64,000 nt of DNA from Acidobacteriota bacterium (lineage in GTDB: Bacteria > Acidobacteriota > Vicinamibacteria > Vicinamibacterales > SCN-69-37): the NCBI GenBank assembly GCA_947467605.1, contig CANIII010000011.1, positions 54,172-118,171 of the forward strand, in the 5' to 3' direction. The first letter of the stretch is position 1. Every line of letters starts with the position of its first letter. This document shows, in pieces, positions 5,291 through 60,079 of this stretch. Below the pieces are notes generated by a model. It did not search any database, was not told the origin of the DNA, and saw only the letters and a list, made by a program, of their open reading frames with translations. Both the position numbers and the translations under genes were made by a program.

Positions 5291-5329
5291 TCACGCGGCG
5301 TCCATCGGACATCACGCAGGAGAGGGCAA

Positions 5330-7623: not shown

Positions 7624-7637
7624 CCGCGGAAATTCAA

Positions 7638-7673: not shown

Positions 7674-7765
7674 TCCTGGCATTTCCCCCGCCGCAACATC
7701 AATCGCCCCGGACCATCTTCGTGGCACACGCGTTGCACCCTGAGTCCCATGGAACTGGAGGGTGT

Positions 7766-24082: not shown

Positions 24083-24107
24083 ATCCTACGTCGAGGATGC
24101 GCCGTCG

Positions 24108-24674: not shown

Positions 24675-24679
24675 GGCAG

Positions 24680-24871
24680 CTACCTCCACGTGATCGAGCC
24701 GCCGATGCCGACCCGCTTCGTGCCGACGAGCGCCACTTGAGGGGCGATGCGCACCGTGGTCTTCGGATCAGATTTCCGATACACGATCTCCTGCCCCTCG
24801 ATGCGGCTGTCAATCCAGGCGCCAATGCCACCCCAGATCAGCCCGCCACCCACACACATGAGTGCGAGTGC
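24680..24871 (-). pseudogene. Orphan duplicated 3' fragment of the adjacent glycine-zipper gene
   Basis: ORF 24680..24991 is homologous to 24108..24674 only over its last ~64 aa (ALALMCVGGGLIWGGIGAWIDSRIEGQEIVY...VALVGTKRVGIGGSITWR versus GFCVTSGLIFGGIGAWIDSLIEGRDVLY...VELVGSKRVGIGGSITWR). The first ~34 nt of the two 3' ends are nearly identical at the DNA level. The fragment has no signal peptide or N-terminal half. Confidence 0.55.
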
Positions 24872-32656: not shown

Positions 32657-32784
32657 CAAACCCTTCAACATGGGGGGCCATGAAGGGCCATGGGGAAGAT
32701 TTTCAAAGAGCTCTTCGAAAATCTGTCGATGTTGGTGTTGATCTTCCCTATGGCCCTCCATGGCCCTCCATGTTGAAGGGTTTG
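32657..32784. repeat. Long-palindrome intergenic repeat, copy A (128 bp)
   Basis: The 44-nt arms at 32657-32700 and 32741-32784 pair at 41/44 positions (aligned by hand). They flank the 28-nt core TTTCAAAGAGCTCTTCGAAAATCTGTCG at 32701-32728. The element exactly fills the gap between the ggt stop (32656) and the convergent gene's stop (32785). Confidence 0.9.
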
Positions 32785-34893
32785 TCATCTGCCGACCATG
32801 CGGCGCACGGCGGCGATGTCGGCTTGCATCGATGGCGGCGCGGTGCGGATGAACTGATCGGCATACACGCGCGCTTCGTCGATGCGGCCCGATTGGGCGA
32901 GGGCGCCGATCAGGTTGTACATCGCATCGAATGACGAGCCGTCGATGGTGACGGCGCGCTTCCAGCTGTCGATCGCGTCGTTCGGACGCTTCGTTTGTGC
33001 GAAAAGCGCACCGAGCGCGTTGAACGCATCTGGGAGCGACCCGTCCACCGCGAGCGCCTTGCGCAGTGACGCTTCCGCATTCACGAAGTCTTTGGCCTGC
33101 AACTGCGACACGCCGATGTTCTGGTATCCAACGGCGCTCTTGGGATCTACGGCAATCAGATGCTGGAACGTCCTGATGGCGTCGGCTGATCGCCCCGACA
33201 TTTGATACGCGTTGCCGAGCGCGATCAGCGCGTCTGGATCATCGCCGGCGAACGACGAGAGCAGTTGAATGGCTTTCGCCGGCTGTCCCGACTGCGCAAG
33301 ATATTCACCGAGTTTGATCTTCACTTCGCTCTGCGTGACGCCTGCGCGCAGCGCCGCTTCGAGTGTGCTGATCGCATCGGCGGGCCGGCCCGTACGCCAG
33401 TAGACGAGTGCGAGCTTGCGATACGCATCCTCCGTATCTGCGCGTCGTGCGATCACACTCTTGTACATGGCGATCGCCTCGTCCACCTTGCCTCCCCGAA
33501 AGGCGGTCATGGCGCTGGTCATGGTCTGTTCCAGTTCAATCAGCTTCTTGGGATCGTCGGCTTCGGTGTATTTCTCACGCAACGCGGCGGCACCGCCGCC
33601 GATGTAGCCGAGGGACCGCAACGCTTCCACGGTATCTGCCGTCTCGGCCTGCGGTTTACCTGGAGGCGCCACGTTGAAGCTCTTGAGCGTGTTCAGCAGC
33701 ACCTGCCCGCGCGTGTTCTCGGTCGCGACAATGTTGCGGAGTTCCTTGGTGTCAGCCTGCAGATCGTAGAGTTCCGCGATGGGCAGATCGATGAACTTGT
33801 CGCGGCCGACGAGCACGCCGCGCAGTGGTGCCCAGCCGCGCGCGAGGTTCGCGCTCATCGCTTCGAAGTACGACGGCCGATCCGCGCCGGTGCGTGATGC
33901 AATCAACTCTCGCAGGGACGCGCCGGCAATGCCGGTCGCAGCCGGTGCCGTCACCGCTTCGAGCACCGTCGGCAGAATATCGACATGACGGACGGGCGAT
34001 GTCACCGTCACGCCGCCGGGCACGGCCGTCTGTGAGCCGCCGACTTCCGCGATGATCATCGGCACATGCAGCGTCGACTCGTACGCGAAGAGGCTGTGCG
34101 TCAGCTCGCCATGATCGCCGAGGCCCTCGCCGTGATCGGCTGTAACGATGACCAGTGTGGAGCGGGGAAGTGTGGCGAGTCGGTCGAACAGCACGCCGAG
34201 CGCGAAGTCGGTGTACGAGACCTCCGCGAGATAGGGATCCGACGGAAACTTCGCGGCCCACTCCGGAGGGGCGGCGTACGGCGCGTGTGGGTCATACACA
34301 TGTGCCCACGTAAACCACTTGCCCGGTTGCTGGCCGATCCAGCTGAGCGCTGATGCCACGACAGCGTCCGCGCGTCGTTCCCGCTCGCCCGCCTCCGCCA
34401 AGGCTACGGCGGACAGGCCCGGTGTCCCTGGCACTGCGAGGTTGTCGTCGTAGGTGTCGAAGCCGACGTTGAGGCCGAAGCGATGATCGAGTGGAAAGCC
34501 GCCGACAAACGCGCCGGTGGCAAACCCCTGCGCTTTCAACAGCGTGGCGATCGTGGGTGTCGTCTGCGGAAAGCGATAGCCCGTGTTGTCGCGGATGCCG
34601 TGCTCGTACGGATAGCGGCCACTGAGAATCGATGCGTGTGACGCGAGCGTCACGACGGCGTGGGCGTGCGCGAAGTCAAACTTCGCCCCGCGCGCGGCCA
34701 ATCGGTCGAGATTCGGCGTCGTGGCACGTCCCCCGTACGCGCCGAGAGCGTCGGCGCGCAGCGTGTCGATGGTAACGAGCAGAACGTTACGATCGACGTT
34801 GGGCACGAGGGCAAATTCAGGTGTTCGCGTGAACCACCAGGCCGCCCCCGAGAGAGCCGCCAGCGCCAGAACGATCAGGGCTTTTCGAGCCAT
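32785..34893 (-). CDS. Sulfatase-fold (alkaline-phosphatase superfamily) domain protein with a C-terminal TPR array
   Basis: A 702-aa ORF with an N-terminal TM segment. The sulfatase-type N-terminus reads LLVTIDTLRADALGAYGG...NLDRLAARGAKF. The nucleophile position reads TLASH rather than CxPxR. The motif VTADHGEGLGDHGE is present. The C-terminal ~280 aa contain TPR repeats (e.g. AIAMYKSVIARRADTEDAYRKLALVYW). Confidence 0.85.
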   Translation of the reverse strand: MARKALIVLALAALSGAAWWFTRTPEFALVPNVDRNVLLVTIDTLRADALGAYGGRATTPNLDRLAARGAKFDFAHAHAVVTLASHASILSGRYPYEHGIRDNTGYRFPQTTPTIATLLKAQGFATGAFVGGFPLDHRFGLNVGFDTYDDNLAVPGTPGLSAVALAEAGERERRADAVVASALSWIGQQPGKWFTWAHVYDPHAPYAAPPEWAAKFPSDPYLAEVSYTDFALGVLFDRLATLPRSTLVIVTADHGEGLGDHGELTHSLFAYESTLHVPMIIAEVGGSQTAVPGGVTVTSPVRHVDILPTVLEAVTAPAATGIAGASLRELIASRTGADRPSYFEAMSANLARGWAPLRGVLVGRDKFIDLPIAELYDLQADTKELRNIVATENTRGQVLLNTLKSFNVAPPGKPQAETADTVEALRSLGYIGGGAAALREKYTEADDPKKLIELEQTMTSAMTAFRGGKVDEAIAMYKSVIARRADTEDAYRKLALVYWRTGRPADAISTLEAALRAGVTQSEVKIKLGEYLAQSGQPAKAIQLLSSFAGDDPDALIALGNAYQMSGRSADAIRTFQHLIAVDPKSAVGYQNIGVSQLQAKDFVNAEASLRKALAVDGSLPDAFNALGALFAQTKRPNDAIDSWKRAVTIDGSSFDAMYNLIGALAQSGRIDEARVYADQFIRTAPPSMQADIAAVRRMVGR

Positions 34894-34952
34894 TGGGAGA
34901 CAAGCTTAGAACAATTGCCCGGGCGACCTGCTTGCTCCTACACTGCAGAGGC

Positions 34953-37211
34953 ATGAAGACACTGTCGTCGTTCATTGCGACTCTCGTCATCGGAACTCTT
35001 GGCGTTGCCGTGGTGGCGCAGCAAACCACGCCGCCGACCTTTCGCAGCGGCGTGTCACTGGTCACCGTGGACGTCACCGTGCTCGACCGGGACGGCAAAC
35101 CCGTGCCTGGTCTCACTGCGGATGACATCGAAATCAAACTGAACGGCAAGGTGCAGCCCGTGCGCGCGTTGGCGTATGTACAAGCCGCAGCCACCCCTGT
35201 CGCGCCAGTACCCGACGCACCAAGGGCGGTCGCGGCTGTGCCGCCCGCGCCAAGTCCAATCGCCGCGCCGTCTGCGTCTGCGCCGAGACACACCATCAGC
35301 AACGCCGGCGCCGGATCGTCGCGCGCACTCGCGCCTGCAGCCGCGCCACCACCGGCGGTCGTGGCCGCACCACCCGCCGAGTCGCGCGTGTTCATTCTGC
35401 TTGTCGATGACTTGTCGTTCGCGCCAATGCGCGGCAAAGCCATGTTCAATGCGGCGACCCGGTTTCTCGATCGCATTCCGCCCTCGGATCTGGTCGGCTT
35501 CACGACGACGAGTGGCGTGGGGGCCGTCAATCCGACGCGCGATCGCGCGCTACTGCGCACGGCGTTGTCGAAAGTCGTCGGCGCATTCAACGATCCGCGG
35601 GGCATTGGCAAGACGGGTGCGGCCGCGCCAGGCAAAGCCGGCGCGGCGACGATGGACCAGCCCCTTGGGATCAGCGAATCCATCGACATCGAACGCGGGG
35701 ACGACTCGCTGTTGAAGGACGTGATTACCCGCGAGTGCTACAACGGCGATCGCAGCCAGACCAATGGCATCAGCGTCGCCGCGATGATGATCGAGGTGCC
35801 CTGCGCGGCCGAAGTAAGCCGGGATGCGCGCCGCGTGGCGGCGCTCTCGCGCCAGAACAAGGGACGCCAGATCGATGGCGTGCTGTCGGTGATCAACGCG
35901 ATGAAAATCGCCGGCGGCATTCGCCACCTCGTGCTGCTCACGGAAGGCCTCCCGGTGTCTCGCGAGGTGAATGACCTGACCCCGCTCGTGAAAGCGGCCG
36001 CGCTGGCCGGCGTGCAGCTCAGCGTGTTGCTCGAAGAGCCCGACATCAGCCTGACGGATGAAGGGCGACGCCAACAGGACGCCGGCGTCGTCCCCCAAGC
36101 CGACACGGGCATGTCCCGTCGTCGTCGCGACGACGACATGCTGCTCGTGAACGGCGCACAGACGCTCACCGACATGCTCGGCGGTACGTTCTATCGCGTG
36201 ATCGGCAATGCGGATCCGTCCTTCGACCGGGTCATCGTCGCGAGTTCTGCGGTGTATCGCCTCGGTGTTGAATTGCCCGCTGGTGCCGCGCCGGGAAAAG
36301 AATTCACCGTCACCGCATCGGTGAAACGGCCCGGCGTCACAGCAAAAGCCAACAAGTTGGCTATGGTGGCGCCACCCGAAAACGCCGCCGCACCGACGGC
36401 GGCTATAAAACCGACGGCCACGGATGCGAACGGCAACCCCATCGATCCCTCGAAGATTGCGACGGGCTCAACGCTCGCGACGACCGGGTCGATTGACGAC
36501 GTGCTGAAGGCCGCGCTGAACTCGAGCGTCAACACCGGTGATGTGCCGATCCGGATGGGAGCCACGCTTCGTCGAAGCACCAACGTGGCTGGTCAGGTCG
36601 ACGTCAGCGTGAATATCGTGATCCCGGCATCGGTGAAAGGGCCGATCACGACATTCATCGGGCTTATCGATTCGACCAACGCGCTTCGCAGCAATCGCCG
36701 CGTGCTGGATCCATCGCCTGGTGCCGACTATGCCGTGCCGTTCCTGTTTCCGTTGCCGACTGGTGACTACCGGATCCGTTTTGTGGCGTCGGACACCACC
36801 GGTGCCGTTGGCACGATTGACCTTCCCGTGCACGCGGCGCTGTCAACATTTGGCGAGTTCACGTCGAGTGACGTGCTGACGTGGGTCGTCGATAGCGCCA
36901 ACAGAGCGCAACTGTTCGCGATCGAAGACGTGCCGGCCGGCGCCGACACGCTCAACGCGTCGATTGAGCTCTATCCCAAGGGCGACATGCCGGGCGAGTC
37001 GCCGACTATTCGATGGACGCTGTTGAAAGACGGCGAGGCCAACCCGATTGCCGAAGACGAAACGCCGGCGCGCCCAGCAGCCACGCTGATGCGCGCCGAT
37101 GTGGAGTTCCCGTTCGCGGCGTTGCCGGCGGGGATGTACACCGTTCGCGCCGAACTGATCGTGAACGACAAGGTCGCCGGCACGCGCGCGGCCATTGTGC
37201 GCAAACGCTAG
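34953..37211 (+). CDS. Secreted VWA-type protein of the VWFA-related Acidobacterial domain family (large form)
   Basis: Based on ORF 34893..37211. I start it at ATG 34953 (signal peptide MKTLSSFIATLVIGTLGVAVVAQQ). It has the family N-terminal motif PTFRSGVSLVTVDVTVLDRDGKPVPGLTADDIEI and a VWA-like core (VFILLVDDLSF...). The C-terminus is beta-rich. Confidence 0.8.
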   Translation: MKTLSSFIATLVIGTLGVAVVAQQTTPPTFRSGVSLVTVDVTVLDRDGKPVPGLTADDIEIKLNGKVQPVRALAYVQAAATPVAPVPDAPRAVAAVPPAPSPIAAPSASAPRHTISNAGAGSSRALAPAAAPPPAVVAAPPAESRVFILLVDDLSFAPMRGKAMFNAATRFLDRIPPSDLVGFTTTSGVGAVNPTRDRALLRTALSKVVGAFNDPRGIGKTGAAAPGKAGAATMDQPLGISESIDIERGDDSLLKDVITRECYNGDRSQTNGISVAAMMIEVPCAAEVSRDARRVAALSRQNKGRQIDGVLSVINAMKIAGGIRHLVLLTEGLPVSREVNDLTPLVKAAALAGVQLSVLLEEPDISLTDEGRRQQDAGVVPQADTGMSRRRRDDDMLLVNGAQTLTDMLGGTFYRVIGNADPSFDRVIVASSAVYRLGVELPAGAAPGKEFTVTASVKRPGVTAKANKLAMVAPPENAAAPTAAIKPTATDANGNPIDPSKIATGSTLATTGSIDDVLKAALNSSVNTGDVPIRMGATLRRSTNVAGQVDVSVNIVIPASVKGPITTFIGLIDSTNALRSNRRVLDPSPGADYAVPFLFPLPTGDYRIRFVASDTTGAVGTIDLPVHAALSTFGEFTSSDVLTWVVDSANRAQLFAIEDVPAGADTLNASIELYPKGDMPGESPTIRWTLLKDGEANPIAEDETPARPAATLMRADVEFPFAALPAGMYTVRAELIVNDKVAGTRAAIVRKR

Positions 37212-37241
37212 TTTCTCGCCGTTCTGCCCTACACTGCGTGC

Positions 37242-39278
37242 ATGCGACGCGTGTGGGTTGGGATGTTCGCGCTGTGCCTCACGGCGCTGCTCGGTCGTGT
37301 CGCGGCCCAACAGCCGGCGCCGCCCACATTTCGTAGCGGGGTCACGCTCGTCACGATCGATGTCGTGGTGCTCGACCGCGATGGCAAGCCAGTGTCGGGC
37401 CTGACGGCTGACGATTTCCAGATCAAGTTGAACGGCAAGCCGCAACCGGTCCGGGCGCTGTCGTACGTGCAGGTCGCGCAGCAGGCGGCCCCGATGGTGG
37501 TCAGCGATGTTGCCGCCGAGGAACCAGTTGGTCGCCGTGTGGTGACCAACTCGACGCCCGTTGGTGAGGCCAGACTCTTCGTGTTGATGGTGGACGATCT
37601 GTCGTATTCACCGGGTGGCGGCAAGTCGCTGTTTGCCGCGGCCTCACGCTTCATTGATCGGCAACCGGTCGCCGACTACGTCGGCGTGACCACAAGCTCG
37701 GGCACCCGCGTCGTCAATCCCACCCTCGATCGCGTCTTCGTCAAGCAAACGCTGTCGCGAGTCGTCGGCGAATTCATCGACCCGCGCCGGCCGTTCACGC
37801 CGACGAGTCCAACGTTGAGCATTCAGGAGGCGCTCGACATCGTGGACTTCAATGACCAAGGCGTGCTGCGGCAGGTCATCACGCGCGAGTGCTTCGGCGG
37901 CAATGCCAACGAAACGGCCTCACTGCGCGCTGACCAGCTCGTGTCGCGCACCCAGTGCGGCGGGTCAACCGAGAGCACGGCGCGAATGATTGCAAGCACC
38001 ACGCGGTCCACGAAAGAGCGACAACTTGCCGCCGTGATTGCCGCGATCAACGCGATGAAGCCGGCGAAAGGATTGAAGCAGCTCGTGCTGATGTCGCAGG
38101 GCATCGGCGTCACGCGCAACGCCATGCTGGATCTCGAGCCGGTGGCTCGCGCCGCAGCCGAGGCTGGCGTGCAGATCAGCGTGCTCGTCGATGAAGGTGA
38201 CGATGTGGACGCCGGCGACGGCGGACACACGAGAGACGACACGCGCGGCGACTCCATCGGTGCGCCCGACGCCGGGATGACTGCTCGGCGCCGCGATGAT
38301 CAACGCATGTTCAGGTCAGCGATGCAGACGCTGGCTGATGCCAGTGGCGGGTTCTTTCAGACCGTGATCGGCAATGGCGATCGCGCGTTTGATCGGGCCG
38401 CCGTGGCGGGCTCAGCACTGTACCGTCTCGGCGTCGAGCCGCCCGCTGATGCGCCTGTGGGTCGGGCGTTCACGGTGGCCACAACGGTCAAACGCTCCGG
38501 TGTCACCGTGCAGGCGAATCGTCAGGCCGTGATTCCCGGTCCGCCGCCGTCAGTATCCGCCGACGAACAGGTGAAAGCCGCCATCAACGAAGGGCAGCCA
38601 CTCTTCAACGTGCCGATCCGCATGGCGGTCGCACTGCGACGCGCATCGGCAGGGCAGGTGGAACTCGGCGTCGGCCTCGATGTCCCCGCGTCGGTGGCCG
38701 GGCCGTTGACGATGACGTTTGGGCTCGTGAGTGAGAAGGGGGAGCTGCGCAGCGGCAAACGTCAGCTGGTAGCGCCCGCAGACACGTCGAACTATCGACT
38801 CACGTTTCCACTGCCGGTCGCGCCCGGAAAATACCAGTTGCGGTTTGCCATCTCCGACGCAACCGGTAGCGTTGGCAGCATCGACGTGCCGGTGGATGCG
38901 CATCTGGCCACGCTCGGCACACTCACGGCCAGCGACGTGCTCACGTGGTGGACAGATGCGAGCGGTCGCGCGCAGTTTCTGGCGCTCGATGAAGTGCCTG
39001 CCGGTGTTACCGCGCTTGGCGCCGGCATCGAGCTATATCCCGCTCCCGGCGCGGCGTTTCCGGCTGACGTGAAAGTGAAGATGTCACTGATCCCAACCGG
39101 CAAGACCGCCGCTGTTGTTGAACGCGAAGTCACGCCTCTGTCTGGCGGCGACCTGCTCCGCGCCGAAGCGCAGTTACCGCTGACCGATGTCCCCGCCGGC
39201 AGCTACACGCTACGCGCGACGGTCACTGTTGAAGGCAAAGTCATCGGCACGGCCGCAGCGATCATCCGCAAGCGCTGA
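37242..39278 (+). CDS. Secreted VWA-type protein (large form), tandem paralog of 34953..37211
   Basis: It has a signal peptide and the motif PTFRSGVTLVTIDVVVLDRDGKPVSGLTADDFQI. The VWA core carries an intact DxSxS (DLSYS, 37596-37610). It is collinear with the upstream paralog throughout. Confidence 0.8.
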   Translation: MRRVWVGMFALCLTALLGRVAAQQPAPPTFRSGVTLVTIDVVVLDRDGKPVSGLTADDFQIKLNGKPQPVRALSYVQVAQQAAPMVVSDVAAEEPVGRRVVTNSTPVGEARLFVLMVDDLSYSPGGGKSLFAAASRFIDRQPVADYVGVTTSSGTRVVNPTLDRVFVKQTLSRVVGEFIDPRRPFTPTSPTLSIQEALDIVDFNDQGVLRQVITRECFGGNANETASLRADQLVSRTQCGGSTESTARMIASTTRSTKERQLAAVIAAINAMKPAKGLKQLVLMSQGIGVTRNAMLDLEPVARAAAEAGVQISVLVDEGDDVDAGDGGHTRDDTRGDSIGAPDAGMTARRRDDQRMFRSAMQTLADASGGFFQTVIGNGDRAFDRAAVAGSALYRLGVEPPADAPVGRAFTVATTVKRSGVTVQANRQAVIPGPPPSVSADEQVKAAINEGQPLFNVPIRMAVALRRASAGQVELGVGLDVPASVAGPLTMTFGLVSEKGELRSGKRQLVAPADTSNYRLTFPLPVAPGKYQLRFAISDATGSVGSIDVPVDAHLATLGTLTASDVLTWWTDASGRAQFLALDEVPAGVTALGAGIELYPAPGAAFPADVKVKMSLIPTGKTAAVVEREVTPLSGGDLLRAEAQLPLTDVPAGSYTLRATVTVEGKVIGTAAAIIRKR

Positions 39279-39284
39279 CGCGCC

Positions 39285-39438
39285 AGATCAAAAGCATTCA
39301 ACATGGGGGGCCATGGGGAGCCGTAGGGAAAACAAAATCAAAAGACAGGCTTTCAAAGAGCTCTTCGAAAATCTGTCGGTGTTGGGTTTGATCTTCCCTA
39401 TGGCTCCCCATGGCCCCCCATGTTGAGTGTTGTGATCT
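39285..39438. repeat. Long-palindrome intergenic repeat, copy B (~154 bp)
   Basis: The arms at 39296-39330 and 39394-39428 pair at 33/35 positions. The identical 28-nt core lies at 39351-39378. The outer termini are AGATCA...TGATCT. The element sits between the convergent stops at 39278 and 39449. Confidence 0.9.
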
Positions 39439-39448
39439 TGGCAGCGCG

Positions 39449-41620
39449 CTACCGTCCGCTGATGTACCGCGCGATCTCCGCGCGTTCCTGTGGCTGTGCA
39501 TTGGGCGGCGTGTTGGCGAGGAACTGCTGACCGTACCTGACGGCGTCGTCGCGGCGACCGGCCTTCGCGAGTTCGAGCCACAGGTTGTAGAGCGTGTCGG
39601 TGTCGGTGGGATCGATTTCGACGGCTCTTTTCCAGGCATCAATCGCGTCGGTCTTGCGATTCATGTACGACATCGTCACGCCAAACGCCGTGTAAGCCCC
39701 CGCCAGGGTGGGGTCGGCTGTGAGCGCCTTGCGAAGGTAGTCTTCTGATTCACTGAGCAGAGCCGTGTTTCTTTTGCCGCCGTCTTCGTACGCATGTAGC
39801 GCGATCGCGGAGAGATTCTGGAACGCGAGGCCGTTCGTCGGATCGAGTGCGAGGAGCTTTATGAACGTGCGCTTGGCGTCCGCGTAGCGCTTGGCCTCGA
39901 GGTACGCAATGCCCAGGCCGTTGAGCGCTTCCACATCGCTGTCGGGCAAACCTTCGAGCACCGTGATCGCGGCCTGCGCGTTCGTGTGACTTTCCGAGAG
40001 GTAGATGCCCAATCGAATGCGGATGTCACGATCGGGCGCGCCCGCCTTGATGCCGCTCTCGAGCGTGCTGATCGCGTCGCCCACCTGTCCGAGTTGCCAG
40101 TACAAGTAAGAGAGCGACATGTACGCGTCGGCGGTGTCTGGTCTGAGGCCGATCACCTTTTTCAGCAGCGCGATGGCCTCCTGCGGGCGGCCGCTTTGAC
40201 TGAACTCGGTGGCGCTGTGCATGTCGCGGTCGAGTGATGCGAGATTCTTCGGATCGTCGGCCTCCGTGTAGCGATCGCGCGCAGGCGCGCTGCCAGAGAT
40301 GTAGCCGAGCGATCTGAGGTTGGCTGCCGCGTCTGCCGATTCGCGCATCGGGCGATTCGGCGGCGCAAGGTTGAAGGTCTTCAGCGTCGCAAAGAGCACG
40401 CCGGTGCGATCGGCTTTCGATGTCGCCAGATTCTGCAGTTCCTTGGCATCGGTTCCGAGATCGTAGAGTTCCGGCACCGGCAGGTCGATGTACTTGTCTT
40501 TCGCCACGAGCACGCCCCGCAGCGGCGCCCAGCCGCGCACGAGGTTGTAGGTCATCGACTCGAAGTAGGACGGACGATCGGGACCGCTGCCGGATCGAAT
40601 CAACTCACGCAGTGACGACCCGGCCATCGTGGAATCGGCCGGGGCACCGATCGCGTCGAGGACAGTCGGTGCAATGTCGACGTGCCGCGCCGGCGCGTTG
40701 ATCACGACGCCGCGCGAGGCTGTGTGATTCGGTTGCACCGTCGCGATGATCAGCGGCACATGCAGTGTCGATTCGTACGCGAACATGCCGTGCGTCGCCT
40801 CGCCATGTTCACCCAGGCTTTCGCCGTGGTCCGCCGTGACGATGACGGTCGTCGCGCGCGGGAGTGTGGCGAGCCGGTCGAAGAGCGGTTGCAGCGTGCT
40901 GTCGATCCACGCGACCTCGCCGTAGTACGGCTGCGCGCTGTAGTCGGTGGCGAATGCACCTGGCGGACGATACGGCGAGTGCGCATCGAAGACATGCACC
41001 CACGAGAAGAACTTGCCCGGTTGCTGACCGATCCACGCGACCGCGCGCGACACCACTTCGTCTGCGCGGCGCTCCGGCATTGAGAACGTGGCGTCGCCCT
41101 TCATCTCCGGCATCTGATCGTCGTAAACATCGAATCCGGGTGTGAGCCCGAAGCGTTTCGTCAGAGGAAATCCGCCGACAAACGCGCCCGTCGAAAATCC
41201 GCGCGATTTGAGCCGCGTCGCCAGTGTGGCCGTGCCGTCTTTGACGCGATATCCGCTGTTGTCGCGCATGCCGTGCTCATACGGCAGTTGTCCCGTCAGG
41301 ATCGACGTGTGCGACACCAGCGTGACGACCGCGTGCGCGTGCGCAAACGTGAACCGCGCGCCGTGTGCCGCCAGTGCGTCAAGATGCGGCGTCTTCGCCG
41401 GCCCACCGTAGGAAGACAACGCATCACCACGCAGCGTGTCGATCGTGACGAGGAGTACGTTCTGCTCGCCATTGGGCTCAAGCGTGTAGGCCGGGCCGCG
41501 CCCCCACCAGAAAAATGCCGCCGATGCTCCGGCAATCACGAGCAAACCCAATCCCAGCAACGGTCCGATGCGGGTACTCCGAGTGGGTGTCTTCGTCGTG
41601 GGCTTCCGCGGCGCGCTCAA
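39449..41620 (-). CDS. Sulfatase-fold domain plus C-terminal TPR protein, paralog of 32785..34893
   Basis: A 723-aa ORF with the same architecture as the paralog. It contains LLVTIDTLRGDALSSYGG, the nucleophile position TLVSH (41309-41323), VTADHGESLGEHGE and a TPR tail. The track gives a TTG start, so the start is uncertain. Confidence 0.85.
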   Translation of the reverse strand: MSAPRKPTTKTPTRSTRIGPLLGLGLLVIAGASAAFFWWGRGPAYTLEPNGEQNVLLVTIDTLRGDALSSYGGPAKTPHLDALAAHGARFTFAHAHAVVTLVSHTSILTGQLPYEHGMRDNSGYRVKDGTATLATRLKSRGFSTGAFVGGFPLTKRFGLTPGFDVYDDQMPEMKGDATFSMPERRADEVVSRAVAWIGQQPGKFFSWVHVFDAHSPYRPPGAFATDYSAQPYYGEVAWIDSTLQPLFDRLATLPRATTVIVTADHGESLGEHGEATHGMFAYESTLHVPLIIATVQPNHTASRGVVINAPARHVDIAPTVLDAIGAPADSTMAGSSLRELIRSGSGPDRPSYFESMTYNLVRGWAPLRGVLVAKDKYIDLPVPELYDLGTDAKELQNLATSKADRTGVLFATLKTFNLAPPNRPMRESADAAANLRSLGYISGSAPARDRYTEADDPKNLASLDRDMHSATEFSQSGRPQEAIALLKKVIGLRPDTADAYMSLSYLYWQLGQVGDAISTLESGIKAGAPDRDIRIRLGIYLSESHTNAQAAITVLEGLPDSDVEALNGLGIAYLEAKRYADAKRTFIKLLALDPTNGLAFQNLSAIALHAYEDGGKRNTALLSESEDYLRKALTADPTLAGAYTAFGVTMSYMNRKTDAIDAWKRAVEIDPTDTDTLYNLWLELAKAGRRDDAVRYGQQFLANTPPNAQPQERAEIARYISGR

Positions 41621-41649
41621 GGCTTCCTAGATGTAGCACACAACCTGCT

Positions 41650-41697
41650 CCAAAGCATTCAACACCATCGCCCCCCATGTTGAATGGCCTTTGATCT
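41650..41697. repeat. Collapsed / internally deleted copy (D) of the long-palindrome repeat
   Basis: The sequence CCAAAGCATTCAACA-CCATCG-CCCCCCATGTTGAATGGCCTTTGATCT retains both terminal segments of the family. The left end resembles copy B and the right end resembles the reverse complement of copy C's left end. The inner arms and core are missing. Confidence 0.65.
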
Positions 41698-41701
41698 TGG
41701 T

Positions 41702-43807
41702 CTATCTGACGATGATCCCTGTCTCTGTCGTCGCCACCGTGTGTGAGTCAGTGGCGGTGATGCGGAGGCGGAAGGCGCCGGGGCCGAGTGGGGCGAGCGG
41801 GACGCGGAAGTCGATGCGGCCTGAGGCATTCGGCGCGACCGACTTGTCGATCGCCAGCATCGGCCGGTTGTTGCTGTCGACGATCATCACCGTCAGTGCG
41901 ACGGTGGAGTTCATGTCTTTGCGCGCCACTTCGAAATAGGCGCGAAGCGTGTCGGTCGTCTCGAATGTGCGCAGCAGCGTGGGCTCGAAGGGCAAGCGGT
42001 CCGGTACGGCCACGCGCGGTCCGGGACCGACGTTGCGCGCCGGCGCTGTTGGCGGCACGCGCCCAACCGGTACGCGCGCGCCGTCAGCAAAGCCGAGCGC
42101 GATGCCGCTCAGCGCCAGCGCTGTCTTCGAGTAATCCGGCACGGTGATGTCGAGGTAGACGCTGCCGCCCGTGCCCAGCTTCGCGCTCATCGCCGACGCG
42201 CGCAGTTGATAGCGGCCCGGATCGAGATCGAGCGTCAGCGGAATCTGATACGTGACGCTGTCGGGCATGTCGGCGCCGCCATTGCGACCACTCAGCGACA
42301 GCTTCGCGGCCCGCCCCGTTCGCGACGTGACCTTGGCCTTCTTGTCGTCCACCACCAACACCGAGTACGTCACATCGTCGCTCAGCTTGTTGTTGGCGTC
42401 GCGCATCGAAGAGGTCGGCGCCGTGACTTCCAGTGCGATGGCCACGTTGGAAGTCTTGCCTTTGCCGACCAGCGGCAATGCCGTCAGCCGCAGCGGCAAG
42501 TCACTCTTCGGCATCACCCCGGCGACCAGCGCGACCAGTGGATCCTTGTTCTTCGGCGGCGCCGGTGGCGCCCCGGGCGTGTAGCCGTGCCGGAATCGCA
42601 GCGTGTATTCGGGATGGCCCGTCACCGTGACAACGAGCGGTCGATACTTGTCGCCACCACTCGGGTCCGTCGGGTAGAAGCCGAGCAGATAGTAGTGATC
42701 CAGGTCTTCCACGATGTGCTGCAAGCCGCCCGTGAGGTCGTCCGTGTCGGTGACGGCGAAGCCACCCGAGGCCTCCGTCATGAATCCAAGCCCGTCCTGC
42801 GCGCGCCGAATGGGATTGTCCCAGCGGAAGACCGCGTCGCCGCCGAGTGGCGCGGGGTGGAGTTCCTGTTGCATGTCTTCAGGCTTCACCTTGCCGCGCG
42901 GGTCGAGCGCGTAGGTGGCGACGTTCGACCGCCGCATCGACTCCATCATGTCCTTCAGCGCACGGTCGTGGTAACACGCGGCGCTCATGGACATCTCACA
43001 CGGTGTCATCGCACTGTCGAAGATCCCGTTCAGTTCTTTGTTGATGCCTTCCGAGATCAGCACGAACGCTTTGCGCCGGTTGTCTTCGCTCCCGAGCATC
43101 CGCGCCGCATCCTGCATCGTCTGAAACTGCTGCATGTTCTCTTCGAAGTCCTGGAGGGAGGTTTCCTGCGACTTGCCAACCGCGTCGAGTGCCGAGAGCG
43201 AATCGCCGTCGGCGGAAATCGCTCCAGCGCGCTGCGTGTCGATGGCCTGGTGCGGTCGCCGCCAGCTTTGTCGCGCCTGCATCGTGTTGAGCGCAGCCAG
43301 CAGCTCCGATCGATCTTGCGTCACCTGTGTGCTGTGCTCGCCGCTCGTGAAGAGCAGAGCCATGGATGCCTGATCGCCGAGTTTCGTGATGACGTCGCGC
43401 GCGAGGTCTTTGGCTTTGTTGGTGCGGCCCTTCCAGATGTGCAGGTCGTCGACCACGATCATGATCAGCCGATCGGCTTGCGTCGACTGGTTGCTCATCA
43501 CGTCCATGCGGAGTGTTGGTGGCAGCACGGGCGCGGGCGTCGAAGCTGCATCCGGCTCCGGGAGGACATGCGAGACTTCGTCGAATGTGGCGACGGTCTG
43601 CGGCTTCTTGCGATCGGTGAGGCTGAAGTCGCTTTGTTTCAGGCCGCGAATAGCGTTGCCGTCCTTGTCAACAACGACGACGTCGACGTTGATCAGTTCG
43701 ATGTTGGACTTGAAGGTTGTTTGCGGAGTCTTGCTGGGAGGCTGTTGTGCTGCGAGTGAAGCGGCGCAGCATGCGACGAAGGTGAAGACGAGTCGCATGC
43801 TGCGCAT
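41702..43807 (-). CDS. Secreted VWA-type protein (large form)
   Basis: It has a signal peptide and the motif TTFKSNIELINVDVVVVDKDGNAIRGLKQSDFSL. The VWA-like core is LIMIVVDDLHIW. The C-terminal domains are beta-rich. Confidence 0.8.
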   Translation of the reverse strand: MRSMRLVFTFVACCAASLAAQQPPSKTPQTTFKSNIELINVDVVVVDKDGNAIRGLKQSDFSLTDRKKPQTVATFDEVSHVLPEPDAASTPAPVLPPTLRMDVMSNQSTQADRLIMIVVDDLHIWKGRTNKAKDLARDVITKLGDQASMALLFTSGEHSTQVTQDRSELLAALNTMQARQSWRRPHQAIDTQRAGAISADGDSLSALDAVGKSQETSLQDFEENMQQFQTMQDAARMLGSEDNRRKAFVLISEGINKELNGIFDSAMTPCEMSMSAACYHDRALKDMMESMRRSNVATYALDPRGKVKPEDMQQELHPAPLGGDAVFRWDNPIRRAQDGLGFMTEASGGFAVTDTDDLTGGLQHIVEDLDHYYLLGFYPTDPSGGDKYRPLVVTVTGHPEYTLRFRHGYTPGAPPAPPKNKDPLVALVAGVMPKSDLPLRLTALPLVGKGKTSNVAIALEVTAPTSSMRDANNKLSDDVTYSVLVVDDKKAKVTSRTGRAAKLSLSGRNGGADMPDSVTYQIPLTLDLDPGRYQLRASAMSAKLGTGGSVYLDITVPDYSKTALALSGIALGFADGARVPVGRVPPTAPARNVGPGPRVAVPDRLPFEPTLLRTFETTDTLRAYFEVARKDMNSTVALTVMIVDSNNRPMLAIDKSVAPNASGRIDFRVPLAPLGPGAFRLRITATDSHTVATTETGIIVR

Positions 43808-43838
43808 AACTTTCTACTTTCCTCTTCCCACTTTCAAC

Positions 43839-44774: not shown

Positions 44775-44810
44775 CGGGTGGTCTCCAGCCGGAAGTATAG
44801 CCGTACGTTG

Positions 44811-46748: not shown

Positions 46749-46819
46749 CCGTTGGTAGCTAAGTCCGGCTCTATCGTGGTTCGCAGTACGTAGACAGTCA
46801 AGTCTAGGAGGAAGTAAAG

Positions 46820-50017: not shown

Positions 50018-50018
50018 G

Positions 50019-50086
50019 TCCACTTCATCACCGGAGGAGCTTCTCCTCCGGTGAGTCAGACCAGACGGCTCCGGAGCAATCCGGAG
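50019..50086 (+). terminator. Double hairpin; the second is a canonical rho-independent terminator
   Basis: Hairpin 1 is CACCGGAGGAG-CTT-CTCCTCCGGTG (50019-50043). Hairpin 2 is CGGCTCCGGA-GCAA-TCCGGAGCCG (50056-50079), followed by TTTTTTT (50080-50086). Confidence 0.8.
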
Positions 50087-50140
50087 CCGTTTTTTTGTAC
50101 TCGGTTCGCTTCCCTCCGTGGATGATAGACACCCACGCAC

Positions 50141-51961: not shown

Positions 51962-51962
51962 A

Positions 51963-53756: not shown

Positions 53757-53760
53757 CGCT

Positions 53761-55056: not shown

Positions 55057-55140
55057 AAGGACTCCCGAGGTGAATTTTCAGTACTTTAGTCCGGCCGGCG
55101 GTCAACCACCAGCGTCCAATTCGCCGGGGGATAATCAGAT

Positions 55141-55992: not shown

Positions 55993-56014
55993 CACCCGCT
56001 TGATATCCTAGAGG

Positions 56015-57121
56015 GTGATGCTCAGAGCTGGAATCGTCGGACTGCCGAACGTCGGCAAGTCCACCCTCTTTAACGCCGTCACTCGCACCCGCAAGGCCGA
56101 GGCGGCCAACTATCCCTTCTGCACCATCGATCCCAACGTTGGGATTGTCGTGGTGCCCGATGCAAGGCTGTACGAACTGCAGAAGATCGCGAAGACGAAT
56201 GTCGTGATTCCTGCCGCGGTGGAGTTTGTCGACATCGCCGGGCTCGTGAAGGGCGCGAGCCAGGGCGAAGGCCTCGGCAACAAGTTCCTCACGCACATCC
56301 GCGAAGTGGATGCGATCGTGCAGGTGGTGCGCTGCTTCGAAGACGAAGACGTGCATCACGTGTCGGGCACGGTCGATCCGGTGCGCGACATCGAAGTGAT
56401 CAACACCGAGCTGATCCTCTCGGATCTCGACTCGGTCAAGAAGCGTCGCGACAAGCTCGCCAAAGACATCAAGCGCGGCGACAAGGCCGCGGCGGCCGAA
56501 GAGGCCGTGCTCGCCAAGATCGAGCCCGTGCTCGACAGCGGCAAGCCGGCACTGTTGACCGAGCTGACGCCGGAAGAACATGCGCTGTCGGCCGGCGCGT
56601 TTCTGCTCACCGACAAGCCCACCATCTTTGCGTGCAACGTGAAGGACTCCGACCTGGCCGGCGCGGCGACCAACGCGCACGTGCTGAAAGTGCGCGAGTA
56701 CGTGAAGACGCATCTGGCCTGCGAAGCCGTCGTGATCAGCGCGCAGATCGAATCGGATCTGACGGACCTCTCGCCCGAAGAGGCCGATGCGTTCCTGAAG
56801 GAACTCGGCGTCGACGAGAGCGGGCTCGGCGCGCTCATTCGCTCCACCTATCACTTGCTCGGCCTGCGGACGTACTTCACCGCCGGTGAAAAAGAAGTGC
56901 GCGCGTGGACGATCCATGCGGGCGACACCGCGCCGAAGGCCGCCGGTGTCATCCACAGCGACTTCGAGCGCGGTTTCATCAAAGCCGAAACCGTGGCCTA
57001 TGCGGACCTCGTCGCCTGCGGCTCGGTCGCCGCGGCCCGCGAAAAAGGTCTCTACCGCATGGAAGGCAAGGAATACGTCGTCGCCGACGGCGACGTGTTG
57101 CTGTTCAAATTCAACGTGTAG
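56015..57121 (+). CDS. ychF: Redox-regulated ribosome-binding ATPase YchF (Obg-like)
   Basis: The N-terminus is [18 protein letters not shown]. The C-terminal TGS-like region reads [30 protein letters not shown]...[19 protein letters not shown]. The start is either GTG 56015 or ATG 56018. Confidence 0.95.
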
Positions 57122-57136
57122 CACTATCCTCACGCC

Positions 57137-59917
57137 ATGCTGAGAGCCATTGCCGCGAGTCTTGTCGTGATCGCCGCCGTCGCCGCCTATGCGCAACAGG
57201 ACGTGAAGCGGGAAGAGGCGGAGTACTCCCCGCTCGGTTACTACGACCTCCGTGCCTACGAGCAGGCGTATCCGGGCGTGCCGGGCAGCACCATCGTCAT
57301 GCAGGCCACCGCAGGTCGCTACTGGGCGTATCGCGGCATCGCGTACCGCGGCGCCGATCCACTCGGCAATGTGTGGATGAGCCTCGGGCCCGAGACGAGC
57401 ATCGTGGACGCGGCCGGGACCCGCAACGTGTCGGGCCGCGTGGCGGCGATCGCGATTTCACCGACCTGCGAGGAACACGGCGCGTGCCGTGTGTGGGTGG
57501 GTGCCGGCGGCGGCGGCGTGTGGCGCTCCGACGATGGCATGAACACGACGGATCCGAAGTGGCGATGGGTCTCGAGAGGGCTGGGCACGAACAGCATCGG
57601 CAGCCTGGCGCTCGATCCGAGCGATCGCACCGGCAACACGATTTACGTGGGCACCGGTGAGACCAACACGCCGCAGAACTCCGGCGCCGGCACGGGTCTC
57701 TACAAATCAACTGACGGCGGTGACAACTGGTCGCGCGTGTCGACGATGGTGCTCGACACCTCCGTGTCTCCCACAGAAATCGATTTCACGGCCACGCGCG
57801 GCATCAGCACCGTGATCGTTGAGCCCACACATCCGCAGACGTTGTACGTCGCCACGACGACCGCGATGCTCGGCATGACGGCGGTGCGCGGCGGTCAAAC
57901 ACAGGTGACCGGGTACCCGCAGCCGCGTCCCGGTCTCTACAAGACCGAGAACGGCGGCCTCACATGGACGCTGATCTGGACGCCTCCGCTCGAGACGCTG
58001 TTCGTGCAGAGCACCAATCTCGGGCAGGGCGTGCGCGACACGATGTCCGGCGTGCGCCACGTGAAACTCGATCCCAGAGATCCGTCCATCATCTACGCGA
58101 CGGCATGGAACAACGCGATCCACCGCTCCGCCTCGTCGCTCGAAGGTGGCGACGCGTCCTTCAAGCCGGTGTTTACGATCGTCGGCGCCCAGCGCCAGCG
58201 TGACCTGGCGATGTTTGACCTCGTCGTCAAGGATGGCCACACACGTATCTATGTCTACAACGGCACGGAATCACTGACCGATCAGGGGCTGTATCGCGTC
58301 GACAATGCCGACACACCAGCGTCCTCGTTGGTGGTGGTGAACAACGGCCTGTTGTCCAACACGGGCGCCTGGATGAAACTTACGGTGAATTCGACGAGCG
58401 AACCGGGCGGCACCAGCCGCCAGCTCTGCGGAACGCAGTGTTTTTACGACCTGGTTGTGGCCAGTCCGCCGGACCAGCCCGATACTGTCTTGATCGCGGG
58501 TCAGCTCATTCCGACGTTTAGTGCGCCGACGCTCCGGTCCACCAACGCCGGCGGCAGTTTCTCGGATTTCGGATCCGACGCCGCCACGCCGCGCAACAAC
58601 AGCCACGTGGACGTGCGCGTCGTGGCGTTTCATCCGAAGAACTCCGACATTGCGTTTGTCGGTTCGGATGGCGGCGTCGTCCGAAACGACGGCACGTTCG
58701 TGAGCATCGCAAGTCGATGCTCGGCACTGTTCGGCACGGCGCCGTTGTGCAGCACGATGCTCGCGTCGGTGCCGTCGCGGATCTATTTCCTGAACAAGGG
58801 GCTGCAGACGTTGCAGTTCTACAACATCGCCCTCGATCCGAAGGCGCCGCTCAAGCGATTGATCGGTGGCCTTCAGGACAACAGCACCATCTGGCAGGAT
58901 GGCACCGGCGACGGTCGCACGTGGCGCACGCTGTTTGGATCGGGCGACGGCACATCGGCGTCCGGGTTTCATCCCACACGGTCGGAAGTGACGTTCGCGA
59001 GTTTTCAGAGCACGAACTTCTTCACCAACTTCCGCAACGGCGACACGAGCTTCTGGACGTTCACGGGCGGCCCGATCTCGGCCAGCAACGAGCTCGCCAC
59101 CGTGACAGCCTCGACCGGTCGGCAGTTCATTTCGTTCGACAGCGTTAATCCGAACACGCAGTTCACCGGGTTTCAGCACCTCTGGAGAACACAGAACAAC
59201 GGCGGCAGTCAGGCCACGCTCGAGGCGAGTTGCCGATCGTCCAGCAGCGCGACGTGCGGAGATTGGGTCCCGCTCGGCGTCACCTATCCGTTTGTGTCGG
59301 GATCCACACCGGCGACGGCCAGCCGGCTGCCGGGCGACCTGACGAGCGCGTTCTACGGCGCTGATCGCTCAGGCGGCATCATCGTGGCGGCAGAGCGCTC
59401 GGCCACTGACGGCGGCACGCTGTGGGCGGCGACGAGCTTCGGGCGGTTGTTCGTCTCGAAGAGCGCCGATGCTGCCGCGGCGTCCGTGCAGTTCAACCGG
59501 GTCGACACGGCGCTGATGCCCAACAGATTTGTGACGCGCATCCTCGTGGATCGCACGAATCCGAACGCGGCGATCATCGCGTACACGGGCTTCAACCAGA
59601 TCACGCCAACGACGCCCGGCCACATCTTCCGCGCCGTGTACGACCCGGCGACCGGCCGCGCGACGTTCACGCGCATTGACGCGGATCTGGGCGACATTCC
59701 GATCAACACCATCGCCTACGACGACCTCCGCGGTGACCTCTACGCGGGCACCGACTACGGCCCCATCATCCTCAAACGCGGCGCCACGAAGTGGGAAGGC
59801 GCCGGCCTCGGCTTCCCGGAAGCGCTGATCGTCGACTTGAAAATTGTGCCGGAGCAACGCACGCTCGTCGTTGCGACGCACGGGCTGGGGATCTTCTATC
59901 TCACGCTGCCGAAATAG
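57137..59917 (+). CDS. Secreted BNR/Asp-box repeat beta-propeller protein (sialidase/VPS10-like fold)
   Basis: A 926-aa ORF with a signal peptide. It carries several SxDxGxxW-type boxes: RSDDGMN, KSTDGGDNWSRV, KTENGGLTWTLI and STNAGGSF. Confidence 0.7.
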   Translation: MLRAIAASLVVIAAVAAYAQQDVKREEAEYSPLGYYDLRAYEQAYPGVPGSTIVMQATAGRYWAYRGIAYRGADPLGNVWMSLGPETSIVDAAGTRNVSGRVAAIAISPTCEEHGACRVWVGAGGGGVWRSDDGMNTTDPKWRWVSRGLGTNSIGSLALDPSDRTGNTIYVGTGETNTPQNSGAGTGLYKSTDGGDNWSRVSTMVLDTSVSPTEIDFTATRGISTVIVEPTHPQTLYVATTTAMLGMTAVRGGQTQVTGYPQPRPGLYKTENGGLTWTLIWTPPLETLFVQSTNLGQGVRDTMSGVRHVKLDPRDPSIIYATAWNNAIHRSASSLEGGDASFKPVFTIVGAQRQRDLAMFDLVVKDGHTRIYVYNGTESLTDQGLYRVDNADTPASSLVVVNNGLLSNTGAWMKLTVNSTSEPGGTSRQLCGTQCFYDLVVASPPDQPDTVLIAGQLIPTFSAPTLRSTNAGGSFSDFGSDAATPRNNSHVDVRVVAFHPKNSDIAFVGSDGGVVRNDGTFVSIASRCSALFGTAPLCSTMLASVPSRIYFLNKGLQTLQFYNIALDPKAPLKRLIGGLQDNSTIWQDGTGDGRTWRTLFGSGDGTSASGFHPTRSEVTFASFQSTNFFTNFRNGDTSFWTFTGGPISASNELATVTASTGRQFISFDSVNPNTQFTGFQHLWRTQNNGGSQATLEASCRSSSSATCGDWVPLGVTYPFVSGSTPATASRLPGDLTSAFYGADRSGGIIVAAERSATDGGTLWAATSFGRLFVSKSADAAAASVQFNRVDTALMPNRFVTRILVDRTNPNAAIIAYTGFNQITPTTPGHIFRAVYDPATGRATFTRIDADLGDIPINTIAYDDLRGDLYAGTDYGPIILKRGATKWEGAGLGFPEALIVDLKIVPEQRTLVVATHGLGIFYLTLPK

Positions 59918-60079
59918 ATCAAAGGCCATCAACATGGGGGGCCATGGGGGGCCGTAGGGAAGAACAAGATCAAACCCGACAGGCTTTCAAAGAGCTCTTC
60001 GAAAATCTGTCGGTTTTGGGGTTGTTCTTGACCTTCCCTATGGCCCCCCATGGCCCCCCATGTTGATGGGTGTTGATCT
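59916..60079. repeat. Long-palindrome intergenic repeat, copy C (~164 bp)
   Basis: The arms at 59927-59962 and 60033-60068 pair at 35/36 positions. The identical 28-nt core lies at 59985-60012. The outer termini TAGATCA...TGATCTA contain the stop codons of both convergent genes (59915-59917 and 60078-60080). Confidence 0.9.

Follow-up and report, generated by a model that had tools for sequence, protein, structure and literature searches.

The window, i.e., the 64,000-nt stretch of DNA analyzed here (contig CANIII010000011.1, positions 54,172–118,171, from an Acidobacteriota bacterium of the order Vicinamibacterales), contains a family of dispersed long palindromes that is represented by three full copies, designated A, B, and C, and by one collapsed copy, D. 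The elements are non-coding, measure 130–170 bp, and are located in a region that is ordinary chromosome, with gyrB and ychF. An earlier note on this DNA, made from its sequence alone, had described these copies as an apparently undescribed repeat family with an invariant 28-nt core. The copies and their main parts are positioned as follows:

32647–32794, + strand: copy A, a full element filling a convergent gap.
32701–32728, + strand: the 28-nt quasi-palindromic core of copy A.
39285–39441, + strand: copy B, a full element in a convergent junction.
39344–39378, + strand: the extended central palindrome of copy B (GACAG..core..CTGTC), with the core itself at 39351–39378.
59916–60081, + strand: copy C, a full element in a convergent junction.
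59961–60033, no strand assigned: the central segment of copy C (~70 bp), comprising the inner AACAAGATCAAACCC / GGTTTTGGGGTTGTTCTTGAC tracts and the core at 59985–60012.
41652–41698, − strand: copy D, a collapsed remnant that retains both outer termini and one right-arm unit.

Pattern matches in the window bear out the existence of a repeat family with three full copies and a remnant. The core TTTCAAAGAGCTCTTCGAAAATCTGTCG has three exact matches, all on the + strand (starts at 32701, 39351, and 59985), and occurs in 0 of 100 shuffles of the window, the chance expectation being none. The arm unit CAACATGGGGGGCCATGG, searched with up to 3 mismatches, has seven matches versus 0.04 expected, including two in each of the copies A, B, and C, and one in D at 41665–41682. 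Copies A and B are ~90% identical to each other. No copies beyond A–D were identified in the window by nhmmer, by degenerate-core and alternative-arm patterns, or by a short-range inverted-repeat scan, and the 9 kb past its right end contain no further copy.

The element is organized as a nested series of inverted parts. The outermost are the inverted termini AGATCAARAGC and GCTYTTGATCT, followed inward by ..TCAAC and then by an arm in which a purine-rich 10-nt unit, CC(A/G)TG(G/A)(G/A)G(G/A)(G/A), is repeated directly three times. Hexamers similar to CAACAC form a variable tract between the arm units and the quasi-palindromic center GACAGGCTTTCAAAGAGCTCTTCGAAAATCTGTC, which is written out as GACAGG-CTTTCAAAGAG|CTCTTCGAAAA-TCTGTC and is followed by the mirror image of the preceding parts. 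As follows from the palindromic symmetry, purines predominate in the 5' arm of either strand. The inverted arms pair at 32650–32700 with 32741–32791 in copy A (51 nt, 90% complementary), at 39295–39342 with 39382–39429 in copy B (48 nt, 85%), and at 59901–59977 with 60018–60094 in copy C (77 nt, 82%). Each of these copies folds on either strand as a single hairpin of ~60–70 bp, as proposed in the earlier note, with free energies from −93 to −121 kcal/mol and z-scores from −11 to −16 relative to dinucleotide shuffles; a single arm alone folds weakly and not significantly (z from −1.0 to −2.1). The near-palindromic character of the core was likewise confirmed (18/20, centered on GAGCTC). A role of the elements in restriction-site decoy or avoidance was considered and rejected, as CCATGG, GAGCTC, TTCGAA, and GATC are present at expected frequencies in the window.

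The gene map of the window was built from the GC content at third codon positions and agrees with Pfam. The genes that border the four copies are:

30905–32656, + strand: gamma-glutamyltranspeptidase (GGT) gene, left of A.
32785–34893, − strand: sulfatase-TPR gene, right of A.
37242–39278, + strand: VWFA-related gene (678 aa), left of B.
39449–41620, − strand: second sulfatase-TPR gene, right of B.
41702–43807, − strand: 701-aa gene, with its stop 3 bp from D.
57137–59917, + strand: 926-aa gene, left of C.
60078–61175, − strand: 365-aa gene, right of C.

Copy A occupies the entire gap between the GGT and sulfatase-TPR genes, and the stop codons of both (TAA at 32654–32656 and TCA at 32785–32787) lie inside its paired region, while the termini of copy C (TAGATCAA / TTGATCTA) give both flanking genes their stops (TAG and CTA). 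Copy D is located in a tandem junction upstream of the next − strand gene, where 3 bp separate it from the preceding stop of the 701-aa gene. Copy B is found 6.6 kb from A, and copy C 20.6 kb from B. All three full copies are in convergent junctions, which number ~8 among the ~48 junctions of the window (p ~0.003 by simple arithmetic), in line with the earlier expectation that intergenic convergent sites are preferred; four other well-defined convergent junctions of the window have gaps of 0–4 bp and no hairpin. The Pfam scan revealed no transposase, as the earlier note had observed for the vicinity of the elements, and no integrase, reverse transcriptase, HUH enzyme, or tyrosine recombinase among the ~49 open reading frames (ORFs) of the window.

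Copies A, B, and D are each directly next to a member of a local gene-family expansion (32785–43807), which contains two sulfatase-TPR paralogs (~72% DNA identity, ~6.7 kb apart) and two VWFA-related paralogs (34893–37211 and 37242–39278). The spacing of A and B (6,650 bp) versus that of the sulfatase-TPR paralogs (6,673–6,700 bp) suggested that the two copies could be by-products of the sulfatase-gene duplication. This origin was rejected, since the paralogs are ~72% identical versus ~90% for A and B, and since one relative, L026 (relatives and other loci are denoted here by L numbers), has both paralogs and an empty site B.

Pairing statistics were obtained from a 12-copy alignment, and the folding of both strands was compared for 13 copies. 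Standard pairs occupy 97.2% of the alignment cells, and eight pairs are changed on both sides, which was reached in 0 of 500 shuffles; when the partner was slid by 1–3 columns as a control, there were 1–4 both-side changes and 33–57% pairing. The shuffle and slide controls thus indicate that the pairing is kept, in agreement with the earlier suggestion that compensatory changes maintain the structure. The particular double change on which that suggestion was founded is present between copies B and C (GGGGAGCC/GGCTCCCC vs. GGGGGGCC/GGCCCCCC) and corresponds to alignment columns 41/168 (GC 5, AU 4, GU 2). The accompanying proposal of a shared G-opposite-T position, read as a G-U wobble in + strand RNA, has to be abandoned: the right arm is CCCTATGG in all three copies but the left arm differs, so that the mismatch is at unit position 5 in A (CCATGGGG) and at position 3 in B and C (CCGTAGGG), and both fold stability and G-U counts are even between the strands.

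The more stable fold belongs to the + strand in six copies and to the − strand in seven, with 54 G-U pairs on the + strand and 50 on the − strand. This lack of strand preference implies that symmetry is kept either at the level of the DNA palindrome or in both transcripts, and a strand-specific RNA was rejected on the same comparison; an excess of G-T over A-C in alifold (30 vs. 3) is an artifact of a structure derived from the + strand. Compensatory changes alone do not prove selection on RNA, because templated correction from arm to arm yields the same pattern, and both the symmetrized center of L014 and the arm exchange seen in a site C copy with a flipped center (see below) point to maintenance of the DNA palindrome. 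The palindrome is probably kept up by template switching within the molecule or conversion from one arm to the other, by recombination of the arms, and by selection against hairpins with mismatches; a single functional RNA strand is not indicated. Beyond the structure, the sequence too is under constraint, judging by element B and by the L018 arms when compared with third codon positions.

Comparison of orthologous junctions in relatives reveals elements that are gained, lost, and rebuilt. Site B is filled in the window and in L015 (94% identity, one core substitution), and it is empty in L027 (79% amino acid identity), where 10 bp separate the stops (CGAACGTAAT), and in L026 (73%), where the stops abut with 0 bp between them. 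The reverse case is a junction of 31 bp in the window that holds half an element in L026. Element B of L015 is 5.8% different from that of the window, compared with 12–14% at third codon positions of the flanking genes.

Site C provides a series of increasingly distant relatives. In L008, whose flanking proteins are 96–97% identical, the arms have the same orientation with 3/45 differences each, and the central ~70 bp are inverted, with 3/70 differences after reverse-complementing versus 16/66 when compared directly; the fixed orientation that the window had suggested to the earlier reader therefore does not extend to near-identical strains. In L018 (86% identity), the arms are kept and the core halves are parted by a 21-nt palindromic insert; these arms differ from those of copy C by ~9% (hand count) versus 37% at third positions of the flanking gene. 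The same site is occupied in L020 (65% identity) by an unrelated 105-bp hairpin with arms of 8-nt units AAAGRGSC / GCCCCTTT; in L022 (59% identity), only 29 bp, including a 6-bp hairpin, separate the genes.

At site A, the arms switch between relatives from CCATGGGGGG-type to CGTGAAGAA-type units: in L015 the arm units are of the CGTGAAGAA type and the core has diverged (TTTTCAAAAAGATTTTCGAAAAGCTGTC), the window copy is intermediate with one CCATGAAGGG unit, and L026 has ATGGGG-type arms and an enlarged center. Site D is collapsed in the window and in L015, and is represented in L026 by a ~230-bp full-length element with a different hairpin nested in its center. Split or nested centers are thus found in L018 and at sites A and D of L026, and L014 has a perfectly symmetrized 30-nt center. 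The invariance attributed to the core is therefore a property of the window copies, whereas relatives have core substitutions, a symmetrized version, and a split core.

Two further observations were made in the same set of relatives. Third-codon-position differences between the window region 30905–41620 and L015 amount to 27–35% around site A and to 12–14% around site B a few kb off, and this mosaic divergence suggests recombination between diverged lineages. Other long hairpins, unrelated to the family, are present in L026 (13010–13100 and 10300–10430) and L020 (11081–11185), for example GGTGAGAAGGCGAAGGCCAGAACGAGAAAGCCC with its complement, and the 5' arms are purine-rich and quasi-repetitive, a polarity shared by 4/4 hairpin types, counting the family studied here. 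In L020, a run of 8-nt units in tandem, (CCGATTCC)n, lies in the region 20553–20720 between convergent genes, with a textbook bidirectional terminator (AAAACGGCCCCGGAGC GTGA GCTCCGGGGCCGTTTT) behind it.

The window sequence is part of a freshwater metagenome scaffold (ENA ERZ28613009, 270 kb) and recurs in many lake assemblies, and the named homologs of the flanking proteins come from Acidobacteriota metagenome-assembled genomes (MAGs), assigned to Vicinamibacterales or named “Acidobacteria bacterium.” A core 22-mer has one true copy among 185,579 species-representative genomes, in the uncultured Solibacteraceae MAG L001, plus one chance coding match, and a core 20-mer identified L003 (identical to L006), L005, L008, and L009 in the JGI metagenomes, together with two chance matches. 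The locus L014 and the syntenic contig L015 were found through spurious ORFs translated from the element, and a profile search of 1.84 billion representative proteins yielded eight clusters of spurious 34–91-aa ORFs from further copies. Near-identical copies, with the same core and arms mostly >85% alike, lie beside unrelated genes at A, B, C, L001, and the lake metagenome contigs L003/L006, L005, and L014; in addition, L009 has the exact core with arms of a different, CGTGAAGGA-type at an unrelated site. The nine independent sites include five convergent junctions, three tandem junctions, and one divergent junction (a promoter region).

No match to the element was found in viral contigs, plasmids, or phages, nor in 5,426 complete E. 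coli genomes (blastn, word size 11), and a literature search for its sequence string found nothing. The Rfam scan of the window at gathering thresholds returned nothing, and the Rfam search by E-value gave only generic long-hairpin microRNA-precursor models, with 13–62 bits versus thresholds of 45–184; within these collections, the element has no named family, as the earlier note had surmised. The short metagenome contigs L011 (16538–16625) and L019 (2423–2491) stop at the palindrome center; such contig ends were not counted as a sign of multicopy status, since palindromes alone can break de Bruijn assemblies.

The elements constitute a real, apparently unnamed repeat family of uncultured freshwater Acidobacteriota that belongs to a known class, the bacterial interspersed palindromic elements; on present evidence, this is a new family of a familiar kind and not a new kind of system. 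The repeat has dispersed to unrelated loci and into several organisms, and orthologous junctions have gained or lost it. Tight convergent gaps are where it mainly survives, and there it can supply stop codons and persists for a long time. It evolves as a DNA palindrome, through matched changes in the arms, flipping of the center by inverted-arm exchange, nesting of palindromes, and collapse by arm-to-arm deletion. Dispersal, gain and loss, the lack of need for the element where it is missing, the collapse of D, and the copy in a promoter region together favor a selfish or neutral non-autonomous repeat. We thus consider it fairly probable that the family represents a non-autonomous foldback-type palindromic repeat, REPIN/MITE-like in its behavior, which is tolerated at convergent 3' ends.

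According to this interpretation, copies would be retained where their insertion harms least, namely at zero-gap junctions of convergent genes. Their spread would depend on a putative enzyme encoded elsewhere in the genome, and the lack of target-site duplications suggests that it recognizes hairpins or single strands, or that a recombination route is used, instead of a DDE transposase of the cut-and-paste type. The arms and core may be conserved beyond silent codon positions because this enzyme, or copy-to-copy conversion, reads the sequence. Transcripts entering from either flanking gene would carry a hairpin of 60–70 bp that, by a plausible analogy with Correia elements, could be an obstacle to 3' exonucleases or to read-through, or a target of RNase III; these RNA-end effects would be a side effect or a later co-option, and not the reason for the existence of the element.

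Several points weigh against a mobile foldback repeat. The boundaries of 10 copies revealed neither a transposition intermediate nor a duplicated target site nor a conserved target sequence, and no target-site duplication is seen between filled and empty B sites, where the empty sites come from diverged relatives with only 73–79% protein identity, so that the exact boundaries of insertion or excision are unreadable. No candidate enzyme for the spread was identified. With regard to genome-wide copy number, the visible part of this genome (~73 kb) accounts for three full copies and one remnant, and the collection of species-representative genomes contains a single true match. Dispersal may alternatively have occurred by gene conversion into pre-existing hairpins. 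Finally, the long persistence at sites A, C, and D and the conservation above the silent-site level would also fit a host function.

A bolder version of the mobile repeat, which we put forward only tentatively and regard as rather improbable, is that these repeats are the visible population of an undescribed hairpin-based mobile system in Acidobacteriota, including its enzyme, insertion at hairpin tips, and co-option by the host. A single-copy enzyme would then recognize the palindromic tip and the decamer arms in folded single-stranded or cruciform DNA, and new palindromes would insert preferentially into the tips of old ones. Such tip insertion, if true, would explain why the centers of L018 and L026 are nested or split and why the window core is enclosed by GACAG...CTGTC. 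Flipping of the center would be driven by the same inverted arms, and copies may have been co-opted by the host to serve as bidirectional modules at RNA ends where convergent genes are tightly packed.

Among the bacterial interspersed repeats, REPINs are doublets of REP sequences that form hairpins and are mobilized by RAYT transposases (Bertels and Rainey, 2011; PMC3116915). The family resembles them as a set of non-coding extragenic repeats, ~100 nt long, each of which folds as single-stranded DNA or RNA into one long hairpin, with frequent compensatory changes, no target-site duplication, decayed remnants, and copies persisting at orthologous sites. Neither the window nor the gene tables of the retrieved loci include a gene for a RAYT, a Y1 HUH transposase whose gene is flanked by REPs in REP-RAYT systems; such an enzyme, if there is one, would be specified by a single gene outside the window, so that its absence here is no surprise. 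However, each REPIN arm is a REP, an imperfect palindrome of 20–40 nt, and the spacer is the least conserved part (PMC3116915), whereas here the arms are three direct 10-nt units without a significant fold of their own and the center is the best conserved part in the window. The absence of REP-like sub-palindromes argues against a REPIN. The 5' end of a REP carries a conserved GTAG or CGTC tetranucleotide (PMC3733652), but such a tag is not consistently present here: GTAG appears only in the third unit of copies B and C and of the L008 copy (CCGTAGGG), the other copies having CCATGGGG or CCATAGGG.

[quoted passage not shown] However, no direct repeat abuts the termini in 10 copies, and these missing target duplications argue against a classical DDE MITE; as for a parent insertion sequence with the same ends, the 64-kb window contains no transposase, and plasmids and phages gave no match. 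Correia elements (CREE/NEMIS) of Neisseria are bounded by defined 26-bp terminal repeats, duplicate a TA target, and contain a site for IHF. In the family, neither a TA nor any other duplication is present at the termini, no sequence similarity is apparent, and the palindrome extends over the entire element instead of being confined to its ends, which sets the family apart from this general description of Correia elements. Similar features are the Correia length of 100–155 bp, inverted repeats with a conserved core, and insertion at gene ends. Correia elements are reported to be co-transcribed, and their hairpins to be bound or cleaved by RNase III and to alter the expression of neighboring genes (PMC2649163). 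They are the best functional analogy for possible effects of RNA stems of 60–70 bp at 3' ends.

ERIC-type elements have length variants that arise from internal insertions, and they are located in transcribed regions beside stop codons. ERIC/IRU and YPAL-type enterobacterial repeats are described as intergenic imperfect palindromes of 127–170 bp with a conserved central inverted repeat (PMC2759123), similar to the elements of the window. They differ in that there is no similarity to the family in E. coli genomes (blastn), in belonging to another phylum, and in having arms without tandem subrepeats. Drosophila FB elements have long inverted arms composed of short tandem subrepeats, and variable centers. 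Such eukaryotic foldback (FB-type) elements offer the closest architecture, with arms that make up nearly the whole element, short tandem subrepeats, and variability in center and length; they are eukaryotic, of kilobase scale, and in some cases have known transposases, and this would be a likeness of form with no homology implied.

Among the rival explanations, the one that survives best takes the elements for host-functional hairpins, i.e., bidirectional transcription barriers, 3'-end protection, or RNase III sites that would be selected on both transcripts and homogenized by gene conversion; we judge it unlikely, albeit deserving of consideration. It would account for the strong enrichment at convergent junctions and for the presence at site C of some hairpin in every relative down to 65% protein identity, even one of unrelated sequence in L020. 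The occupation of site A in three lineages, divergence below the level of third codon positions, and compensatory changes in elements whose two strands fold equally are compatible with it as well. The A-rich and T-rich outer termini (GATCAAAAGC / GCTCTTGATCT) resemble the A-tract and U-tract of a bidirectional intrinsic terminator, as do the position of the hairpin between convergent genes and its folding on both strands. However, the stem is ~5 times the usual length, no uninterrupted U run follows it, the tails are only moderately T-rich (TTGAATGCTCTTGATCTT), and the conserved loop sequence would be needless for a pure terminator. A consensus terminator scan of the 30–45 kb region calls nothing at A or B. 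By contrast, two canonical intrinsic terminators occur at 50030–50100 after the gene for a 1065-aa outer-membrane protein (CACCGGAGGAGCTTCTCCTCCGGTG; ACGGCTCCGGAGCAATCCGGAGCCG then T7), whose short GC stems and T7 tail indicate that the lineage uses ordinary intrinsic terminators, as does the terminator of L020 described above. Further evidence against a host role comes from site B, which dispenses with a hairpin in two relatives (0 and 10 bp between stops), from the hairpin-free convergent junctions of the window, from the collapse of D, and from the copy in a divergent promoter region.

The core could instead be an operator-like dimer site (half-site TTTC(A/G)AAGAG) and the arms a 10-bp-phased array for a nucleoid, gyrase, or partition-type protein, so that the elements would act as protein-binding modules in duplex DNA. 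The core is indeed the best-conserved part within the window, persists alongside quite different arms both in L009 and at L015 site A, and tolerates inversion as a symmetric site would, and the arm units repeat at one helical turn. Yet the sites are at 3' ends and not at promoters, the half-sites are split by 21 nt in L018 while the arms are kept, and the core is replaced entirely in L020 and L026. Extensive compensatory pairing would be superfluous for duplex binding, and no candidate binding protein was found. We regard this explanation as distinctly improbable.

A small protein of ~28–44 aa (..RQAFKELFENLSVLGLIFPMAPHGPPC) is a still weaker candidate and very unlikely. The earlier statement that the elements contain no credible ORF needs qualification, as a frame of 28–40 codons (..FKELFENLS..) crosses the core and is open in most copies, on both strands; we judge it to be a by-product of the palindrome. 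An ATG within the arm opens this frame in A, B, C, L015-B, L014, L001, and L003, gene callers predict such ORFs, the indels by which B and C differ sum to multiples of three, and one L015-B core substitution is synonymous (AAA to AAG). However, an ATG recurs in the arm every 10 nt, so that one is always in frame, and an equally good mirror ORF lies on the opposite strand (..RQIFEELFESLSG..), as expected from any palindrome so composed. In addition, a TAA four codons upstream of the core closes the frame in L009, the C-termini differ after 1-nt indels (P0002, L001), no Shine-Dalgarno sequence or promoter is evident, and just eight ORF clusters are found among the 1.84 billion representatives. 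The mirror ORF and the L009 stop largely refute the small protein. Finally, attC sites of the integron type, marking gene cassettes, share with the elements an imperfect palindrome of similar size range at gene 3' ends. An inner ..TCAAC / GTTGA.. is invariant in the 10 copies with ATGGGG-type arms, of which three (B, L003, and L015-B) have the full 7-mers (RYYYAAC / GTTRRRY) of the attC core sites. However, the elements lie 6.6 and 20.6 kb apart between convergent multi-kb genes and not behind short co-oriented cassettes, and the conserved center with variable ends is the opposite of attC; with no tyrosine recombinase or other integrase in the window, this scarcely credible explanation is effectively refuted.

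Other repeats of the window are unrelated to the family. A 19-bp inverted repeat at 5241–5293 (TGACTACACGTGTAGGCAC / GTGACGACACGTGTAGTCA), just 5' of a BlaI-type (Penicillinase_R) repressor gene (5330–5722) that is followed by a BlaR1-type M56 peptidase gene (5719–7623), is probably the operator of a BlaI/BlaR1-type operon. A perfect 17-bp stem with a 4-nt loop (ACTCGGGCCGGTGCGGG AATC CCCGCACCGGCCCGAGT) is located at 7637–7674, directly 3' of the BlaR1-like gene, and has no T-run. The segments 24107–24272 and 24679–24844, spaced by 572 bp, are 75–89% identical neighbors in or beside small − strand ORFs, and the pair looks like a tandem duplication of a short gene.

Acidobacteriota are abundant and mostly uncultured, and little is known of their mobile DNA. 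The family described here adds a foldback-like bacterial interspersed palindrome with tandem-decamer arms, a conserved palindromic tip, and no target duplication, which does not match the defining features of REPINs, Correia elements, ERIC, attC sites, or classical MITEs. The elements break metagenome assemblies, change the predicted C-termini of flanking genes, and give rise to spurious small ORFs of 34–91 aa in protein databases (P0001, P0002, and P0123–P0128). The lake populations provide an unusually clear natural series of long-palindrome evolution in a bacterial chromosome, from insertion in a zero-gap convergent junction through stop-codon capture, arm-to-arm correction, center inversion, and nesting to collapse. 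The cognate enzyme, if it exists, could be a new hairpin-recognizing recombinase or nuclease.

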